Part shown: in pieces, positions 30,318-44,915 of the stretch
Position numbering within the stretch: position 1 is the stretch's first letter
Layout of the letters: every line of letters begins with the position of its first letter
NCBI GenBank assembly: GCA_023267595.1
Contig: JAHFNB010000002.1
Span: forward strand, 87,947-151,946
Length of the DNA stretch: 64,000 nt
Source of the DNA: a bacterium
GTDB lineage: Bacteria; Patescibacteriota; Minisyncoccia; Phycocordibacterales; UBA5272
Reading direction: 5' to 3'
Program-made: the position numbers and the translations under genes
Notes under the pieces: generated by a model
The model's input: only the letters and a program-made list of their open reading frames with translations
Databases searched by the model: none
Told to the model about the DNA's origin: nothing

Positions 30318-30572
30318 TTTAGCGTGGGATTAATCTGTGTCAGGCAACAAAAATGGTCCCCCGATACAGCGACAATCTCCGAAGAGACGTCCCTCAACCT
30401 TTCAGTTGAGGACCCACGCTAATGAATGCCGATCAGGAGACCGTTTTTATTAGCGTGGGTTTTGTCAGCCATGACACCATAATTAAAAGTGTTTTAGGCT
30501 ACAAATATTCAATTGTCCATACTATTATCGCAGAAAAAGGCTAAATAAACAATTATTCTGTCAAGGTTAAAT

Positions 30573-36690: not shown

Positions 36691-37068
36691 ATGGATATAG
36701 AAGCACGAAAGAAAGAATTATCACCAGAAGAAAATCATGTGCTCTTTAATGGTGGTACAGAAATACCATTTTCTGGTGAATTATTAAACGAAGAACGTAA
36801 TGGAAAGTTTTTATGCAAAGTATGCCATACTCCACTTTTTAACTCTGATGCAAAGTTTGATTCAGGAACTGGGTGGCCATCATTTGATCAGGCACTGCCA
36901 CATGCAGTGGAATATATTGATGATACAAGTATGGGAATGATTCGTCGTGAAGTGAGATGTGCAACATGTCACGCCCATTTGGGACACGTATTTCCAGATG
37001 GTCCAACAACTACAGGGAAGAGATATTGTATGAATTCAGTATGTCTTACATTTGAAGAGAAAAAATAA
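36691..37068 (+). CDS. msrB: peptide methionine (R)-S-oxide reductase MsrB
   Basis: CxxC...CxxC zinc site, GWPSF, and RREVRCATCHAHLGHVFPDGP. Confidence 0.9.
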   Translation: MDIEARKKELSPEENHVLFNGGTEIPFSGELLNEERNGKFLCKVCHTPLFNSDAKFDSGTGWPSFDQALPHAVEYIDDTSMGMIRREVRCATCHAHLGHVFPDGPTTTGKRYCMNSVCLTFEEKK

Positions 37069-37084
37069 GGAGTATACTGGAAAT

Positions 37085-37468
37085 ATGAGTACTATTTTTT
37101 CAAAGATAATTTCGGGGGAAGTTAAAGGATATAAAATTTATGAAGATGAATTTGTATGTGCATTTTTAGACATAAATCCAATTCAAAAAGGTCATACCCT
37201 TGTTGTTCCAAAACAAGAAGTTGAGGATATGTTTTTGTTAGATGAAGTAATGTATGACAAGGTAATGCATCGTGTGCGGTATGTAGCACAGATACTGAAG
37301 GCAAAGTTTGATTGCGCGCGTGTATGTGTTTTTGTTGAAGGATATGTTATTCCTCATGCCCATGTACATCTTGTTCCAACAAATAAACCAGAAGATTTTG
37401 ATAAAAAGTTTGCACATCCTGCAACTGAACAAGAATTAGAAGAAGTACAACAGTTACTTACACACTAA
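37085..37468 (+). CDS. HIT-family (histidine triad) protein
   Basis: HAHVHLVP histidine triad. Start set at the ATG for MSTIFSKII. Confidence 0.8.
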   Translation: MSTIFSKIISGEVKGYKIYEDEFVCAFLDINPIQKGHTLVVPKQEVEDMFLLDEVMYDKVMHRVRYVAQILKAKFDCARVCVFVEGYVIPHAHVHLVPTNKPEDFDKKFAHPATEQELEEVQQLLTH

Positions 37469-39271: not shown

Positions 39272-39302
39272 TAAAAAGTCCTCCTATGGAGGACTTTTTA
39301 TT
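39272..39302 (+). terminator. intrinsic terminator (agtcctcc-tat-ggaggact + T-run)
   Basis: aaaaagtcctcctatggaggactttttatt. It overlaps the track start of the leuS ORF, which argues for the later ATG. Confidence 0.6.
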
Positions 39303-39348
39303 ATATAGAGAGTTTCTTTTCCATAATTTTATTGTTAGTATAGATACT

Positions 39349-42201
39349 ATGAAATCCTATGATCACAAAAAGATTGATGCATATTGGCAAGATAAGTGGC
39401 AGAGTGATTCACTCTATAAAACTTCAGAACTTCCACAAGGAAAAAAAATCTACGTGCTCGATATGTTTCCATATCCATCAGGTGAAGGATTGCATGTAGG
39501 ACATCCAAAAGGATATATTGCAACTGATATCTATTCTCGTTTCAAAAGAATGAATGGATATGATGTACTACATCCAATGGGTTGGGATGCATTTGGACTT
39601 CCAGCAGAACAATTTGCGCTTAAACATAAAATACATCCACGTATTGCAGTAGAAAACAATATTGCGAACTTTAAGAACCAACTTTCACACATAGGACTTG
39701 ATTATGACTGGTCACGAGAAATAAATACAACGGATCCAACGTTTTATAAATGGACTCAGTGGATATTTACAAAATTATATGAAAAAGGTCTTGCATATGA
39801 AAGTCACAAACCAATTAATTGGTGTCCATCATGTAAGACAGGTCTCGCAAATGAAGATGTAAATCATGATGGTACTTGTGAGAGATGTGACACAAAGGTG
39901 GAGAAAAAACCAATTCGTCAGTGGGTACTTAAGATCACTGATTATGCAGATAGAATGCTTACAGATTTGGACACACTAGAATGGCCAGAAGGAGTCAAAC
40001 TTGCTCAAAAGAATTGGATAGGGAGAAGTGAAGGGGCAGAGTTTGATTTTTCATTAACAGATGTAAAAGATCATACTGACGGGTCAATGTCAGTAAAGGT
40101 ATTTACTACACGAGCAGATACATTGTTTGGCGCAACATTTATTGCAATTTCTGCAGACACTGCTAGAGAATGGTTTAATGCTGGTTGGGAAACAATAGAT
40201 GGGGTGAAAGAATATGTTATCGAGACATTAGAAGAACAAAATAAAGAAAATGATTATTCTGTAGTCCCAGAAAAAACAGGAGTATACAGTGGGATTAATG
40301 CTATTAATCCTGCAACAGGTGAGAAAATTCCTGTTTGGATTGCAAATTATGTATTAGGTGGTGTAGGAACTGGTGCAATTATGGCGGTACCTGCACATGA
40401 CGAACGTGATTTTGAATTTGCCAAGAAATATAATTTACCAGTTAAACAAGTTATCTCTCCAGAAACAGGAGTCGTACAAACAAATCCAGAGTTTAGAAAA
40501 AGTATTGTAGCCATTCTGTGGGATAAGAAACAAAATAAGTTTCTCAGTATTAATTGGGGTAAAAACTTAGGTGGAAACTTATTTATTGGTGGTGGAGTAG
40601 ATGGTGATGAAGATAGTATTATTTGCGCCACTCGAGAAATCAAAGAAGAGACTGGCTACACGCATATACGTTATCTTTCTAAGACAGAAGTAATTCATCA
40701 TAATTATTTTGCGCATTCAAAAAATGTAGGACGACGCATTGAAGCAGTAGGACTTTTATTTGAACTTATTGATGATACACAAGAAGAGGTGTCACTTGAA
40801 GAAAATGAAAAGAATAAGTTTACGACAGAGTGGTTATCCAAACAGGAAGTAGAATCAAAAATAGAAGATGCATTACATGCTCTTGTGTATACAATGCTTG
40901 TTAAAGAAGAAATCTATACTGGAGACGGGACACTTATCTCTTCTGGAGAACATGATGGTATAACAAGTGATGAAGCAAGAAATAGATTTGTAGAAAAGTA
41001 CAGTGGGAAAAAAGTTATAAAATATAAAATGGAGGACTGGGTGTTTGCGCGGCAGAGATACTGGGGTGAACCATTTCCAGTAGTGCGTGATAACAATGGA
41101 AAAGTATATATGGTAGATGAATCCGAACTCCCAGTACTGCTTCCAGAAGTGAAGAGTTATGAACCAACAGGAACAGGAGAATCTCCGCTTGCAGCAATTA
41201 CTGATTGGGTTAATGTACGAGGATACATTACTAATAAAGGTACCTTTAAACAATCAAATGATGGAGAAATATTTACTCGAGAGACAAATACCATGCCTCA
41301 GTGGGCAGGATCTTCGTGGTATTACTTACGTTTTGCAGATCCACATAACGATGCTGCACTTATTTCTCCAGAAATAGAAAAGAATTGGTTACCAGTGGAC
41401 GTGTACGTTGGAGGTGATCATGCAACACGGCATTTAATTTATGCACGATTTTGGCATAAGTTTTTATATGATATTAGAGTTGTCTCTACTACTGAGCCGT
41501 TTTCTCGTCTTGAATTTTTAGGATTTATTCTTGCAGAAGATGGACGTAAAATGAGTAAACGTTTAGGTAATGTTATCAATCCTGATGATGTTATTAATGA
41601 GTATGGAGCAGATACCTTTCGTGTCTATGAGATGTTTATGGCACCATTTGATCAGACCGTGGCATGGAGTACGACAAGTATAAAAGGTGCTGATAAATTT
41701 ATAGATAGAGTTTATAGTTTACAAAAGAAAATAAGTGAAACAAGTACAGTTTCAAATATGCTTCATAAAACAATTAAAAAAGTTGGTGAAGATATAGAAA
41801 AGTTCAAGTTTAATACTGCAATATCTCAAATGATGATATTGGTAAATGCTATGGAAGAGGGTAGTTTTACACATGAAGAGTATAGTACTCTTGTTACACT
41901 TCTTGCACCATTTGCGCCACATATGACAGAGCAGATTTGGAATGAATTAGGAAATACCACCTCTATACATAAAGTATCGTGGCCATTGTACGATGAATCA
42001 CTTTTAGTAGAAGATAGCACAACAATATCATTACAGATTAATGGAAAGTTACGCGGAACATTTGTTGTTCCTTTTGGAAGTGATGATAGTACAGTCTTAG
42101 AAGAGGCAAAAATACTAGAATCCTATAAGAAATATGTAGGTGAACTCAAGCCTAAGAAGGTAATTATTATCAAAAATAGACTCATAAATATAGTAATTTG
42201 A
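39349..42201 (+). CDS. leuS: leucyl-tRNA synthetase with an internal Nudix-hydrolase domain insertion
   Basis: HIGH-like PYPSGEGLHVGH, editing-domain TTRADT, and AVPAHDERDFEFA. KMSKR(L) reads GRKMSKRLGN. Between the editing domain and the RQRYWGEP region lies a complete Nudix box GGGVDGDEDSIICATREIKEETGY. Confidence 0.9.
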   Translation: MKSYDHKKIDAYWQDKWQSDSLYKTSELPQGKKIYVLDMFPYPSGEGLHVGHPKGYIATDIYSRFKRMNGYDVLHPMGWDAFGLPAEQFALKHKIHPRIAVENNIANFKNQLSHIGLDYDWSREINTTDPTFYKWTQWIFTKLYEKGLAYESHKPINWCPSCKTGLANEDVNHDGTCERCDTKVEKKPIRQWVLKITDYADRMLTDLDTLEWPEGVKLAQKNWIGRSEGAEFDFSLTDVKDHTDGSMSVKVFTTRADTLFGATFIAISADTAREWFNAGWETIDGVKEYVIETLEEQNKENDYSVVPEKTGVYSGINAINPATGEKIPVWIANYVLGGVGTGAIMAVPAHDERDFEFAKKYNLPVKQVISPETGVVQTNPEFRKSIVAILWDKKQNKFLSINWGKNLGGNLFIGGGVDGDEDSIICATREIKEETGYTHIRYLSKTEVIHHNYFAHSKNVGRRIEAVGLLFELIDDTQEEVSLEENEKNKFTTEWLSKQEVESKIEDALHALVYTMLVKEEIYTGDGTLISSGEHDGITSDEARNRFVEKYSGKKVIKYKMEDWVFARQRYWGEPFPVVRDNNGKVYMVDESELPVLLPEVKSYEPTGTGESPLAAITDWVNVRGYITNKGTFKQSNDGEIFTRETNTMPQWAGSSWYYLRFADPHNDAALISPEIEKNWLPVDVYVGGDHATRHLIYARFWHKFLYDIRVVSTTEPFSRLEFLGFILAEDGRKMSKRLGNVINPDDVINEYGADTFRVYEMFMAPFDQTVAWSTTSIKGADKFIDRVYSLQKKISETSTVSNMLHKTIKKVGEDIEKFKFNTAISQMMILVNAMEEGSFTHEEYSTLVTLLAPFAPHMTEQIWNELGNTTSIHKVSWPLYDESLLVEDSTTISLQINGKLRGTFVVPFGSDDSTVLEEAKILESYKKYVGELKPKKVIIIKNRLINIVI

Positions 42202-42248: not shown

Positions 42249-43277
42249 ATGTCAGGTATTACCTTTAAACCAAAAGCCGTTTCAAAGAAACTTTTGACCA
42301 CACTTAACCCACGAACTCGTGAAATCGTGGTTAATCGTTATGGTCTAGAAAAAGAAGGAAGAATGACACTTGAGGCTATTGGGAAGACATATGATATTAC
42401 TCGTGAACGTGTTCGCCAAATTGAAAACTTTGCCCTTGCAACAATTAAGAAATCAAAAGAGTTTAAGGAACATGCATATGTTTTCGATGAATTAAAGAAA
42501 ATTATCAAGGAACTTGGTGCTGTTGTTTCAGAAGAACATCTCATGCGTCATATTTCAAAAGATCCTGTGATTCAGAATCATATTAATCTCTACTTAGCAC
42601 TTGGAGAAGATTTCAAGAAACATAAGGAAGATGATAATTATAAAACACATTTTGCAACTGATGATAAAACTGCAGCACATGTTCGTGAAGCATTAGGAAA
42701 ACTATATACTTCTATTAACGAAGATGATCTTATTACTGAAGAAGAAATATTTACTCGTTTCGTTGCGCATCTTTCTGAACTCGTTTCTGAATACAAGAGT
42801 AATAAAGAAGTTATCTACAGATATCTCGCACTTTCAAAAGTAATCGGTAAGAATCAACTTTCTGAATGGGGTCGTACATCATCTCCGCACGTAAAAGCAC
42901 GTGGTATTAAGGACTATGCATATCTTATTATGCGTCGTAAAGGAGTTCCTATGCATTTTAAAGAAGTAGCACTCGAAATCAATAAGACATTTGGCAAGAA
43001 GGCACACGTCGCAACCTGTCACAATGAACTTATTAAGGATTCTCGTTTCGTACTTGTAGGACGCGGTATGTATGGTCTTAAAGACTGGGGGCACACAGGA
43101 GGTGTGGTACGTGATGTGATCACTGAAGTTCTAAAAGAATCAACTCGTCCACTCTCAAAAGATGAAATTATCAAGCGTGTACTTGCAAAGCGTATTGTAA
43201 AACCAAACACAGTACTTGTTAATCTTCAGAATGCTAAGTATTTTAGAAAAGTAGCAGGAGAATATACATTGGCGTAA
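42249..43277 (+). CDS. sigma-70 region-4-like HTH domain protein
   Basis: N-terminal TLEAIGKTYDITRERVRQIENFAL resembles sigma-70 region 4. The C-terminal ~250 aa are unassigned. Confidence 0.5.
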   Translation: MSGITFKPKAVSKKLLTTLNPRTREIVVNRYGLEKEGRMTLEAIGKTYDITRERVRQIENFALATIKKSKEFKEHAYVFDELKKIIKELGAVVSEEHLMRHISKDPVIQNHINLYLALGEDFKKHKEDDNYKTHFATDDKTAAHVREALGKLYTSINEDDLITEEEIFTRFVAHLSELVSEYKSNKEVIYRYLALSKVIGKNQLSEWGRTSSPHVKARGIKDYAYLIMRRKGVPMHFKEVALEINKTFGKKAHVATCHNELIKDSRFVLVGRGMYGLKDWGHTGGVVRDVITEVLKESTRPLSKDEIIKRVLAKRIVKPNTVLVNLQNAKYFRKVAGEYTLA

Positions 43278-43388: not shown

Positions 43389-44915
43389 ATGCAGTTTCTC
43401 ATTGATATAGCACTTCTTCTTGTCTATGTATGTGGGTTCTTAATTATTGCCGCATGGGCGTGGCGGTTTTGGATGGCGTATATACATGGTAAATTTTTGA
43501 AAAAAATAGATGAAGAAAGTACTGTATTACTAGAAATAAAAATCCCTCGAGAGATTATGAAGTCTCCTCTTGCTATGGAGACATTTATTCTTAATTTAAA
43601 TCAAGGGTCAGGAATAGGAAGTATATATGAAAGAAATTTTAAAGGAAATCTACCCTCTAGAAGTTCTCTAGAAATTGCTTCTCTTGAAGGTATTATACAT
43701 TTTTATATTCGTACAGAGAAAAAATTTCGTTTGCTCATGGAAGCAAGTTTGTATGCTCAATATCCAGGTATTGAAATATCTGAGGCAGATGATTATACAA
43801 AACTAATTCGCTATCATCATTTATCCAAAGATACTTCTATTTGGGGAGTAGAGGAATTTCTTACACAAAAATGGAAGCCTGTTGACGAGAAAACAGGGCA
43901 GAATTATATGAAGGGTGGTAAAGATTATGAGATGAAAGCAGATTTTCTTCCTATTAAGACTTATGTAGATTATGGACTTGATAAAGATCCAAAAGAAGAG
44001 TTTAAGACAGATCCACTTGCTCAATTAATAGAATTGATGGGAAGTATTGGTGAGGGTCAATATTTTTGGTATCAAATTGTTGTTCAAACTGAAAGTGTTT
44101 TTGATAATAAGAAAAAATTCCCAGGTTTTTTCTTTAATGAAATTTCTGGTGAACATTATACGTTAGTTGATATGGCAAATAAATACAAAAAGCAAATCCG
44201 TACTGCAGGTTTTAATGTTAAGAATAAACCAATGACTGATGAGTATGGTGATATTAAACAAAAGAAGATAGGTACTGATAAAGAAGGTAAGCCTATTTTT
44301 GGTGATGCTCTTTATAAAGAAACTAAGGCTCTTCCAAAAAAAGAAATGGATCTTACCAAAGAAGAAAAAGATACTTTAGATGCAATAAATAGGAAAATTT
44401 CTAAGCCACTTTTTTGTGTAATTATACGTTTTATATATATAGCAAAGAAGGATAAATTTAATTACCAAAATATCTTTAGCCTCCTTAATGCTTTTAGGGG
44501 ATTTAACGGTATGAATTCATTTGCACCATCTCCCACTGACCCATATGATTTTCCTTGGCAAAACGTTGGAGGAAAAAGAGTGGCATGGCGTTCAGAAGAA
44601 GCCTTTGATAGATATGTTGAACGTGAAGGGTTTTTCCCGCATATGCGTAATAAACATTCAAATGATACCTATAGCCTTGAGGCGTGGGAAGATAGATTCT
44701 TTTGGTCATCATCTATGAAAACAAGAAAAATATTTCATCAAATATATGATATTATTTTTCATCCTTTTAGTCATGCAACACCCGATAATGTTTCTGTTTT
44801 AAATACAGAAGAATTGGCAACGATGTGGCATTTCCCAGGAGCAGTTGTTGGTACACCTACGCTTCCTCGTATTGATAGTATGAAAGGTGTTCCTCCCGTT
44901 AATCTTCCTCAGTAA
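43389..44915 (+). CDS. hypothetical membrane-anchored protein (508 aa)
   Basis: N-terminal TM segment and a large soluble domain. No family recognised. Confidence 0.4.
   Translation: MQFLIDIALLLVYVCGFLIIAAWAWRFWMAYIHGKFLKKIDEESTVLLEIKIPREIMKSPLAMETFILNLNQGSGIGSIYERNFKGNLPSRSSLEIASLEGIIHFYIRTEKKFRLLMEASLYAQYPGIEISEADDYTKLIRYHHLSKDTSIWGVEEFLTQKWKPVDEKTGQNYMKGGKDYEMKADFLPIKTYVDYGLDKDPKEEFKTDPLAQLIELMGSIGEGQYFWYQIVVQTESVFDNKKKFPGFFFNEISGEHYTLVDMANKYKKQIRTAGFNVKNKPMTDEYGDIKQKKIGTDKEGKPIFGDALYKETKALPKKEMDLTKEEKDTLDAINRKISKPLFCVIIRFIYIAKKDKFNYQNIFSLLNAFRGFNGMNSFAPSPTDPYDFPWQNVGGKRVAWRSEEAFDRYVEREGFFPHMRNKHSNDTYSLEAWEDRFFWSSSMKTRKIFHQIYDIIFHPFSHATPDNVSVLNTEELATMWHFPGAVVGTPTLPRIDSMKGVPPVNLPQ

Follow-up and report, generated by a model that had tools for sequence, protein, structure and literature searches.

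The window analysed here, a stretch of 64,000 nucleotides from contig JAHFNB010000002.1 of a patescibacterial genome (assembly GCA_023267595.1), carries a leuS gene for leucyl-tRNA synthetase (LeuRS) in which a complete Nudix hydrolase domain is embedded. The domain lies inside CP1, the editing domain of the enzyme, and the gene product is a bifunctional protein, namely a complete bacterial LeuRS with a grafted Nudix pyrophosphohydrolase domain whose activity is predicted from sequence. The features of the gene are given below in window coordinates, with residues (aa, amino acids) numbered from the start of the longest open reading frame (ORF).

39286..42201, forward strand: leuS ORF, 971 aa as the longest ORF (TIGR00396, Thermus alignment)
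39493..39504, forward strand: HIGH signature HVGH, aa 70-73, class I synthetic site (motif mapping)
40015..40458, forward strand: N-terminal part of the CP1 editing domain, aa 244-391 (PF13603 at aa 242-396, 179 bits)
40105-40122, forward strand: T-rich motif TTRADT, aa 274-279
within 40015..40458, forward strand: CP1 I2b helical insertion (about aa 290-330), GTG loop (aa 361-363) and helix alpha2
40393-40410, forward strand: AHDERD, aa 370-375, with the universal Asp D375
40459..40905, forward strand: Nudix hydrolase domain in the CP1 I4b loop, aa 392-540, folded core about aa 402-540 (PF00293, alignment break, AlphaFold2, Foldseek)
40591..40659, forward strand: Nudix box G436-X5-E442-X7-R450-E451-I-K-E454-E455-T-G457-Y458, the metal-binding/catalytic helix (strict GX5EX7REUXEEXGU)
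40720..40833, forward strand: conserved residues outside the box, K479 (40720-40722), L494, E508 (40807-40809) and W516 (40831-40833)
40906..41049, forward strand: C-terminal part of CP1, aa 541-588, with hairpin GTLISSGEHDG, helix alpha3 and return strand KYKMEDWVFA
41050..42198, forward strand: second half of the catalytic domain, with RQRYWG (aa 589-594) and KMSKR (aa 755-759, nucleotides 41548-41562)
within 41050..42198, forward strand: anticodon-binding domain (aa 824-933), followed by the C-terminal domain

The protein scores 920 bits against TIGR00396, the bacterial LeuRS equivalog model of NCBIfam, for which the cutoff is 548, and phmmer aligned it with the LeuRS sequences of the Thermus thermophilus and Escherichia coli crystal structures at E = 1e-171 to 1e-186. 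Both synthetic signatures (HVGH and KMSKR) and the editing motifs TTRADT, GTG and AHDERD are intact, and the leucine-specific domain before KMSKS is absent as judged by the Thermus alignment. The true start is probably ATG 39349 (M22), giving a protein of about 950 aa, since the homologues and the Thermus alignment begin there. The 21 codons in front of it (39286-39348, MEDFLLYREFLFHNFIVSIDT) form an N-terminal extension that is missing from homologues. The identical protein is present in NCBI, ENA and Logan without a name (P0008), and that entry keeps the long form.

The boundaries of the insert follow from the Thermus alignment, which stops at aa 391 of the query (T. thermophilus residue 363) and restarts at aa 541 (residue 374). 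The net insert is therefore about 140-150 aa, standing in for a Thermus loop of 10 residues. Pfam NUDIX (PF00293) was matched at aa 404-524 with 39.7 bits for the full-length protein and 43.1 bits for the segment on its own, the gathering score being 21.1. The AlphaFold2 model of the excised segment, computed with an alignment of 23 sequences, is a Nudix alpha/beta/alpha sandwich with a mean predicted local distance difference test (pLDDT) of 91.9 and a predicted template modelling score (pTM) of 0.84, and in Foldseek about 500 solved Nudix structures were matched with a probability of 1.0. Because the segment folds so confidently and finds these matches, its resemblance to Nudix enzymes is not a matter of chance. 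An earlier note on this DNA, made from the letters alone, had proposed a complete Nudix domain within LeuRS, and the Pfam match, the intact predicted fold and the Foldseek result bear it out; the motif quoted there, GGGVDGDEDSIICATREIKEETGY, is present, and the strict box runs from G436 to Y458. The interval given in that note, 40498-40905, lies inside 40459-40905, sharing its 3′ edge and beginning about 13 codons past its 5′ edge. The segment is not the leucine-specific domain, and the Thermus alignment fixed its limits at aa 392-540.

Three other origins of the insert were considered and rejected. Its base composition is that of the gene (GC content 34.5% vs 35.9%; GC at third codon positions 21.5% vs 22.4%), which leaves no compositional signal of a recent foreign acquisition. 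For a phage origin, a single weak partial match was obtained among 2.9 million viral contigs, where this Nudix type is essentially absent. An assembly artefact or chimera is excluded by the same single-ORF architecture in more than 100 independent assemblies.

According to the earlier note, the insert follows the editing domain and precedes the RQRYWG segment. It does lie downstream of the part of CP1 that bears TTRADT, but not between CP1 and RQRYWG: the CP1 hairpin YTGDGTLISSGEHDG, helix alpha3 and the return strand all come after the insert, as seen in the Thermus alignment, in the comparison with the Nudix-less relative P0015 (see below) and in the AlphaFold2 model. The Nudix domain is thus nested within CP1, whose C-terminal part (aa 541-588) follows it. 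In the model of the combined CP1 and Nudix module (mean pLDDT 89.5, pTM 0.85, both linkers above 90) the Nudix domain sits between alpha2 (aa 373-381) and alpha3 (aa 561-571), and the CP1 portion superposes on isolated CP1 crystal structures with template modelling (TM) scores of 0.79-0.81. The model predicts a fixed arrangement of CP1 and Nudix and not a tethered domain. Bacterial CP1 has the topology b1-b2-a1-b3-b4-b5-b6-a2-a3-b7 with two variable insertions, I2b (three helices) and I4b (PMC3747510). I4b is the long alpha2-alpha3 loop, unconserved among bacteria and about 4 Å from the editing-site ligand; its counterpart I4ae covers the editing pocket's opening, and CP1 binds aminoacyl-adenosine (PMC3747510). 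As the helix order in the model matches this published topology, the insert, on the model, occupies the I4b site and lies at the mouth of the editing pocket.

The architecture is not confined to the window. Pattern scans located 58 species-representative genomes and about 55 metagenome contigs in which a single ORF has the order N-terminal half, first part of CP1, Nudix, second part of CP1 and C-terminal half; almost all of the genomes bear the label Saccharibacteria, Paceibacteria, Parcubacteria, Moranbacteria, Uhrbacteria or "Patescibacteria group". PF00293 is present in about two thirds of the best 120 LeuRS matches to the window protein, and 109 matches at E<1e-30 came from an exhaustive search with a profile against 1.8 billion cluster representatives. 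A homology search with the insert only gave 7 proteins, owing to its word index, while pattern scans and profiles gave hundreds. Across 114 homologous inserts, which are 19-66% identical to that of the window (median 41%), the Nudix-box residues, including the catalytic Glu and Arg on whose loss the earlier note would have fallen, are each 97-100% conserved, and K479, L494, E508 and W516, probable substrate or metal contacts judging from this conservation, are kept in about 96-98%. The strict box is found in 115 of 122 homologous domains, the exceptions being mostly frameshifted pieces or extra copies. Because the catalytic residues are near-invariant in more than 100 Patescibacteria LeuRS while the remainder drops to roughly 20-40% identity, the pattern indicates that the insert is under selection as an enzyme. 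The editing motifs are also kept in most of 181 Nudix-bearing LeuRS (T[TS]RxDT in at least 159, DxxD in 169), and the Nudix domain is thus an addition to proofreading, not a substitute for it.

Comparison of close relatives reveals how exchangeable the insert is. Contig JAHFND010000007 (GCA_023267475.1) shares its gene order with the window (MsrA, MsrB, HIT, DNA-binding protein, holin-like protein, DUF5671, LeuRS, sigma70-like protein, 508-aa ORF, YceG, RNase T, MnmA), and the flanks of its LeuRS (P0015, 780 aa) are 85% and 83% identical to those of the window LeuRS, with the Nudix domain missing. Among backbones 78-88% identical to that of the window, I4b is found in five states: empty (a gap of 30 aa), an ordinary loop (52-77 aa), a Nudix domain of the window type (62-74% identical), a very different Nudix domain (22-39%) and a nucleotidyltransferase-like domain (P0055). 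Conversely, the backbone at locus L001 is just 51-53% identical to that of the window, yet its Nudix domain is 66% identical. The correlation between backbone and Nudix identity across 15,931 pairs is r = 0.11. Nudix domains are less than 40% identical in 468 of 789 pairs (59%) with at least 75% backbone identity, and at least 55% identical in 1,132 pairs with less than 60% backbone identity; these discordance figures are exaggerated, as the pairs were gathered partly by backbone and partly by Nudix similarity. The existence of both kinds of discordant pair rules out a single uniform rate. Single-linkage clustering of the inserts at 45% identity chained most of them into one cluster, which speaks for a continuum of divergent Nudix types instead of discrete classes. 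Taken at the sequence level, these comparisons establish that the insert behaves as an exchangeable cassette, dispensable between close relatives. No free-standing CP1-Nudix gene (see below) was found within 8 kb of Nudix-less leuS in three contigs, and complementation in cis or trans is therefore unsupported by the neighbourhood. A stand-alone Nudix relative, P0007, was checked for linkage to leuS and is not linked.

I4b is one of several loops of LeuRS that have taken up foreign domains in these bacteria. The sites are as follows.

Site 1, the N-terminal CP1 linker before NWIGRSEG: Nudix (L091, L094, L103), ASCH (P0010, aa 244-342), serine hydrolase (L096), and a segment of about 230 aa without Pfam match (L010:4294-8436 and L088:4309-8496, protein about aa 205-450)
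Site 2, I4b: Nudix, or in its place a PF10706 nucleotidyltransferase-like domain (P0055 aa 391-475)
Site 3, the loop after RQRYWGEPxPVV: serine hydrolase (P0090 aa 590-753)
Site 4, the loop that bears the CPKCGG zinc knuckle in Thermus: a second Nudix domain (P0023) or a methyltransferase dependent on S-adenosylmethionine (SAM) (P0047 aa 693-781)

The LeuRS of L010 and L088 are 1,380-1,396 aa long and also bear a Nudix domain and an alpha/beta serine-hydrolase domain; the latter follows the CP1 hairpin and, by its place in the sequence, probably shares the loop of site 3. Up to three Nudix domains occur in one protein, as in the 1,399-aa LeuRS at L091:3433-7629. Two are present at L094:447-3830, and at L103:5224-8223 a single one lies only at the N-terminal CP1 linker, I4b being without. 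It was considered whether the second inserts (second Nudix, methyltransferase, serine hydrolase) also fall inside CP1; motif mapping places them downstream of RQRYWG, where they occupy two loops of the catalytic body.

The closest relatives of the insert outside LeuRS are proteins of 270-334 aa that start shortly before b1, end past the last CP1 helix and carry a Nudix domain at the I4b position. A profile built from 17 of these free-standing CP1-Nudix proteins found 160 more at E<1e-20. The family as collected (P0003, P0001, P0002, P0128 and P0245-P0390; loci L134-L140) belongs to Clostridia and Lachnospirales with some members from the candidate phyla radiation (CPR). Some of them, which NCBI names "NUDIX domain-containing protein [Lachnospirales bacterium]" or "[Clostridiales bacterium]", are found on hundreds of contigs of up to 1.4 Mb. 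The gene for P0003 lies on a CPR contig of 36 kb, flanked on one side by a stand-alone Nudix gene and on the other by a complete leuS (804 aa) with its own CP1, and a CYTH gene lies two genes past that leuS.

In 131 free-standing proteins, many of them so closely related that the counts overstate independence, the editing residues are replaced: the first Thr of the T-rich motif is Ile or Leu in 123, the specificity Thr is Leu in 125 and the universal Asp is His in 113, GTG has become EKN, and His371 is invariant. The hydrolytic editing residues expected of a trans-editing protein are thus not kept. The Nudix box, K479, E508 and W516 are retained in 127-131 of them. The free-standing form looks like a re-purposed pocket on an active Nudix enzyme and not like decay. 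As the editing residues are lost and a Nudix domain is carried, these proteins are probably not deacylases. Since the stand-alone pair keeps the CP1 fold and the Nudix site despite the replaced editing residues, we infer that CP1 and Nudix form a functional unit and would work together.

The free-standing genes have a context of their own. At three divergent loci (L137:3485-7864, L139:2458-8541 and L134:2535-7855) the core consists of a variant radical SAM protein, a phosphoribosyltransferase (PRTase)-like protein of 340 aa, a CYTH protein and, last, CP1-Nudix. The variant radical SAM protein matches NF045502 with about 180 bits, and the phosphoribosyltransferase similarity of the 340-aa protein is weak. 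The operon often includes a genuine (d)CMP kinase, which scores above the cutoff of TIGR00017, and L139 has in addition a MoaA/viperin-like radical SAM protein; the partner proteins are 31-72% identical between loci. A different setting was found on a metagenome contig (L111:52-11349), where a 275-aa CP1-Nudix protein is encoded amid a DegT aminotransferase, a histidine phosphatase, a GNAT protein and a protein of the glyoxalase/bleomycin-resistance fold, together with a CYTH-HAD fusion, a further CYTH protein and an ABC1 kinase. PADLOC gave no match for CP1-Nudix, the variant radical SAM protein, the PRTase-like protein or CYTH, and its matches were generic P-loop ones for the CMP kinase and a weak viperin-like one (55.7 bits) for the accessory MoaA-like radical SAM protein. 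A known anti-phage defence system was accordingly dismissed, the core genes being without PADLOC match.

What the embedded enzyme might act on has to be approached through its relatives. Nudix enzymes cleave pyrophosphate bonds, and an aminoacyl-adenylate is an acyl-phosphate anhydride. The earlier note had suggested action on mis-activated adenylates, which is unlikely in view of this chemistry and of the position of the insert on the editing domain and not at the synthetic site. In profile and fold the nearest solved relatives are the uncharacterised 2AZW and 3FCM, followed by Ap4A hydrolases (lupin 1F3Y, Aquifex 3I7U and human NUDT2; Ap4A, diadenosine tetraphosphate), the RNA pyrophosphohydrolase RppH and the decapping effector AvrM14. 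The Foldseek TM scores are 0.64-0.68 for RppH, 0.69 for AvrM14, within 0.64-0.69 for NUDT2 and about 0.5 for ADP-ribose pyrophosphatases, with small margins. Profile alignments run over the full length to the Aquifex Ap4A hydrolase (E = 5e-9) and AvrM14, and K479 aligns with a Lys in both. Hydrolysis of Ap4A or of diadenosine triphosphate (Ap3A), also raised in the earlier note, is one candidate activity, compatible by analogy with these nearest characterised relatives.

The reading that we favour, tentatively and at somewhat less than even chances, is that the Nudix domain hydrolyses an adenosine-containing nucleoside polyphosphate, with CP1 as docking platform, in local clean-up or detoxification; it is put forward because the nearest characterised Nudix relatives are Ap4A hydrolases and RppH/decapping enzymes and because the free-standing form is encoded among genes for small-molecule nucleotide metabolism. 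The substrate would be a dinucleotide of the Ap4A/Ap3A type that arises as a side product of aminoacyl-tRNA synthetases, or else an ATP analogue that would be turned into nucleoside monophosphate and pyrophosphate in the manner of the Nudix enzyme Pur7. CP1 would serve as the platform and might contribute its adenosine pocket, and the outcome would be a local nucleotide clean-up or detoxification that shields tRNA-Leu charging and proofreading. Close relatives can lack the insert or exchange it, which fits an accessory protective role that depends on the environment and not a core step of aminoacylation. In a wider scheme that we regard as unlikely, CP1-Nudix would be a hitherto unrecognised two-domain enzyme that re-uses a class I editing domain as a platform for nucleosides: LeuRS loops in CPR bacteria would be slots for exchangeable detoxifying or repair enzymes, the editing-dead stand-alone form of Clostridia would belong to an operon making or destroying a modified adenosine nucleotide or aminoacyl-nucleoside, and the whole would reflect an arms race over the aminoacyl-adenosine end of tRNA. 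If this were true, the free-standing forms would be the first stand-alone descendants of a class I synthetase editing domain.

Several observations weigh against the clean-up reading. The Foldseek similarity is merely generic for Nudix folds, with no TM score above 0.69, and none of the curated Nudix subfamily models of NCBIfam reaches its cutoff (RppH 22.9 and 14.7 bits against 116 and 139; NudE, YtkD and MutT likewise far under). P0015 does without aa 392-568, that is, without the Nudix domain and the canonical hairpin after it; since a conserved CP1 element is gone together with the Nudix domain, its sequence points to a secondary deletion. No substitute gene for the missing domain is visible within 8 kb of the Nudix-less leuS of this syntenic relative. 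The LeuRS of relatives use at least four insertion sites for at least five unrelated domain families, and such varied loop inserts also fit a simple tolerance of passenger domains. The partner genes of the clostridial operon were found neither near leuS in the window nor at more than 100 CPR loci. The operon context comes from the free-standing family of Clostridia, which may therefore have diverged in function.

A passenger of this kind would be an independent house-cleaning hydrolase of the MutT, ADP-ribose or Ap4A type, lodged in a permissive loop of an essential, highly expressed gene of a very small genome; its position would carry no mechanistic meaning and the turnover would reflect loop tolerance. 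Besides the diversity of loop inserts, this account draws on the presence or absence of the insert between syntenic relatives with backbones 83-88% identical, on the lack of correlation between Nudix type and backbone, on the known variability of I4b and on a base composition that equals that of the gene. We consider it unlikely all the same, as the CP1-Nudix nesting persists without a synthetase body or editing residues, with a CP1 remnant of 130 aa conserved in 131 proteins, as AlphaFold predicts a fixed CP1-Nudix interface and no tether, and as the Nudix copies are gathered on CP1 or beside it, at I4b and at the N-terminal CP1 linker. The idea that the Nudix domain is a non-catalytic lid, capping or gating the editing pocket like I4ae or sensing a nucleotide allosterically, takes account of the same topological position as the pocket-covering I4ae and of the predicted rigid packing, but a pure lid would have no need for Nudix-box catalytic residues that are conserved throughout divergent copies, and close relatives function with the 30-aa deletion form of the loop; we hold it to be very improbable.

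Two further explanations keep the domain catalytic and change its target. The Nudix domain could act on tRNA-Leu or another RNA held by LeuRS, with CP1 delivering the acceptor end, whether by RppH-like conversion of a 5′-triphosphate into a monophosphate, by Np4A or NAD decapping, or by removing the pyrophosphate that toxSAS toxins add to the 3′-CCA. RppH and AvrM14 are among the top TM scores, NCBIfam gives weak matches to RNA pyrophosphohydrolase and YtkD, the domain that hosts the insert binds the 3′ end of tRNA, the ASCH, methyltransferase and nucleotidyltransferase-like inserts of relatives belong to families that often act on RNA, and toxin pyrophosphorylation of the tRNA 3′ end is a real threat. 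Set against this, every match is far under its family cutoff, and the free-standing relatives lack the tRNA-editing residues and occur in small-molecule nucleotide operons and not beside RNA-processing genes. tRNA 5′ ends, moreover, are normally monophosphates once RNase P has cut. Judging from the published account of CP1 (PMC3747510), the ribose of A76 and its 3′-OH would be buried in the pocket in the editing complex, with I4b at the mouth. Taken as a whole, an action on RNA ends appears doubtful to us. The other explanation sees in the Nudix domain and the other inserts an arms-race cassette that inactivates nucleotide or aminoacyl-nucleoside toxins directed at LeuRS or the tRNA acceptor end, such as adenylate mimics or puromycin-like aminonucleosides, which would explain the rapid exchange of types. 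It is in keeping with the discordance of backbone and Nudix in both directions, with up to three Nudix copies per LeuRS, with aminoacyl-adenosine as the natural ligand of CP1 and, by analogy, with the gene set of L111, which resembles aminonucleoside clusters where Pur7 counts as a resistance enzyme. Nevertheless, no candidate toxin is at hand, the core genes of the operon have no PADLOC match, viral contigs are practically devoid of this Nudix type, and the sampling inflates the discordance statistic. It overlaps with the clean-up reading, differing mainly in the selective agent, and we rate it as distinctly improbable.

Some neighbours of leuS in the window may be recorded here. HIT enzymes act on adenylylated compounds, and a gene for a HIT-family (Hint/DcpS-like) nucleotide hydrolase lies at 37052-37468 on the forward strand, three genes upstream of leuS in a conserved block. 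The HIT gene is also present in relatives with Nudix-less LeuRS (L126, L130), and it is conceivable that it is functionally tied to the side products of aminoacyl-tRNA synthetases. Directly downstream of leuS, at 42249-43277 on the forward strand and in all syntenic relatives examined, is a gene for a 342-aa protein with sigma-70 region 4 and HARE-HTH. It is followed at 43389-44915 (forward strand) by a 508-aa ORF without Pfam match, which has the same place after the sigma70_r4/HARE-HTH gene in L126, L128 and L130. The Rfam LOOT RNA (RF03000), a small RNA motif of unknown function, was matched at 30371-30500 on the reverse strand with 63.3 bits, the gathering score being 46.4.

Antibiotics have a validated target in the LeuRS editing domain, whose pocket is bound by benzoxaboroles. 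A second predicted active site at the mouth of this drug-target pocket, across a radiation of uncultured bacteria, is a new architecture and offers a concrete route into translation quality control or nucleotide detoxification in organisms of minimal metabolism. Close alleles with, without and with differing versions of the Nudix domain amount to a natural experiment, and the stand-alone CP1-Nudix proteins of Clostridia, with their conserved nucleotide-metabolism operon, are an abundant uncharacterised target in themselves. The Nudix and LeuRS families are each well known, and their combination is already visible in precomputed Pfam annotations. The earlier note had called a Nudix domain in a synthetase unusual, and rightly so, as full-text searches over about 8 million papers gave no description of one in LeuRS or any aminoacyl-tRNA synthetase. 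We also know of no description of free-standing paralogues of class I editing domains. A 2026 survey of domain insertions describes the LeuRS editing domain as insert-only, always in a synthetase and with "zero instances of host function" (PMC13114784). The window LeuRS is an exception to its insert-only rule, and the free-standing CP1-Nudix proteins break its statement that the domain always occurs in a synthetase (PMC13114784).

Compared with canonical bacterial LeuRS (E. coli, T. thermophilus, Streptococcus pneumoniae), the window protein is of the same family and has the same domain order, HIGH and KMSKS signatures, T-rich motif, GTG loop and universal Asp. It differs in that I4b, a loop of about 10-20 residues in the canonical enzymes, is a folded domain of 150 aa and in that no leucine-specific domain precedes KMSKS. 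I4ae of eukaryal and archaeal LeuRS is likewise an insertion at the equivalent place in CP1, over the pocket opening, but it is a helix without catalytic role whereas the CPR insert is a complete Nudix hydrolase domain. With the branch of Ap4A hydrolases, RppH and decapping enzymes (3I7U, RppH, NUDT2, AvrM14, 2AZW, 3FCM) the insert shares the Nudix box, the fold and the Lys after the box; its identity to them is 13-22% only, and none of them is nested in another domain. AlaX, YbaK/ProX and ThrRS-ed, the editing-domain paralogues of class II synthetases, are encoded apart from the synthetase like the free-standing CP1-Nudix proteins. The latter, in contrast, go back to the editing domain of a class I synthetase, no longer have the editing residues and contain a Nudix domain.

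Pur7, a Nudix enzyme of aminonucleoside-antibiotic clusters, converts nucleoside triphosphate into monophosphate and pyrophosphate, is counted among the resistance enzymes and has as its partners an aminotransferase, a monophosphatase and an N-acetyltransferase (PMC11641026). These enzymes act on adenosine-nucleotide analogues that imitate the end of aminoacyl-tRNA. The gene set around the Nudix gene of L111 is similar, a parallel in gene content only; equivalents of Pur10 and Pur6 were not seen, and the clostridial core of variant radical SAM, PRTase-like and CYTH proteins is unlike the pur clusters. Finally, isoleucyl-tRNA synthetase (IleRS) with a fused GNAT domain, for which NCBI keeps the 'exception' model NF040702, is also a class Ia synthetase with an accessory enzyme domain, though both the synthetase and the accessory fold are other than those joined in the LeuRS-Nudix protein of the window.

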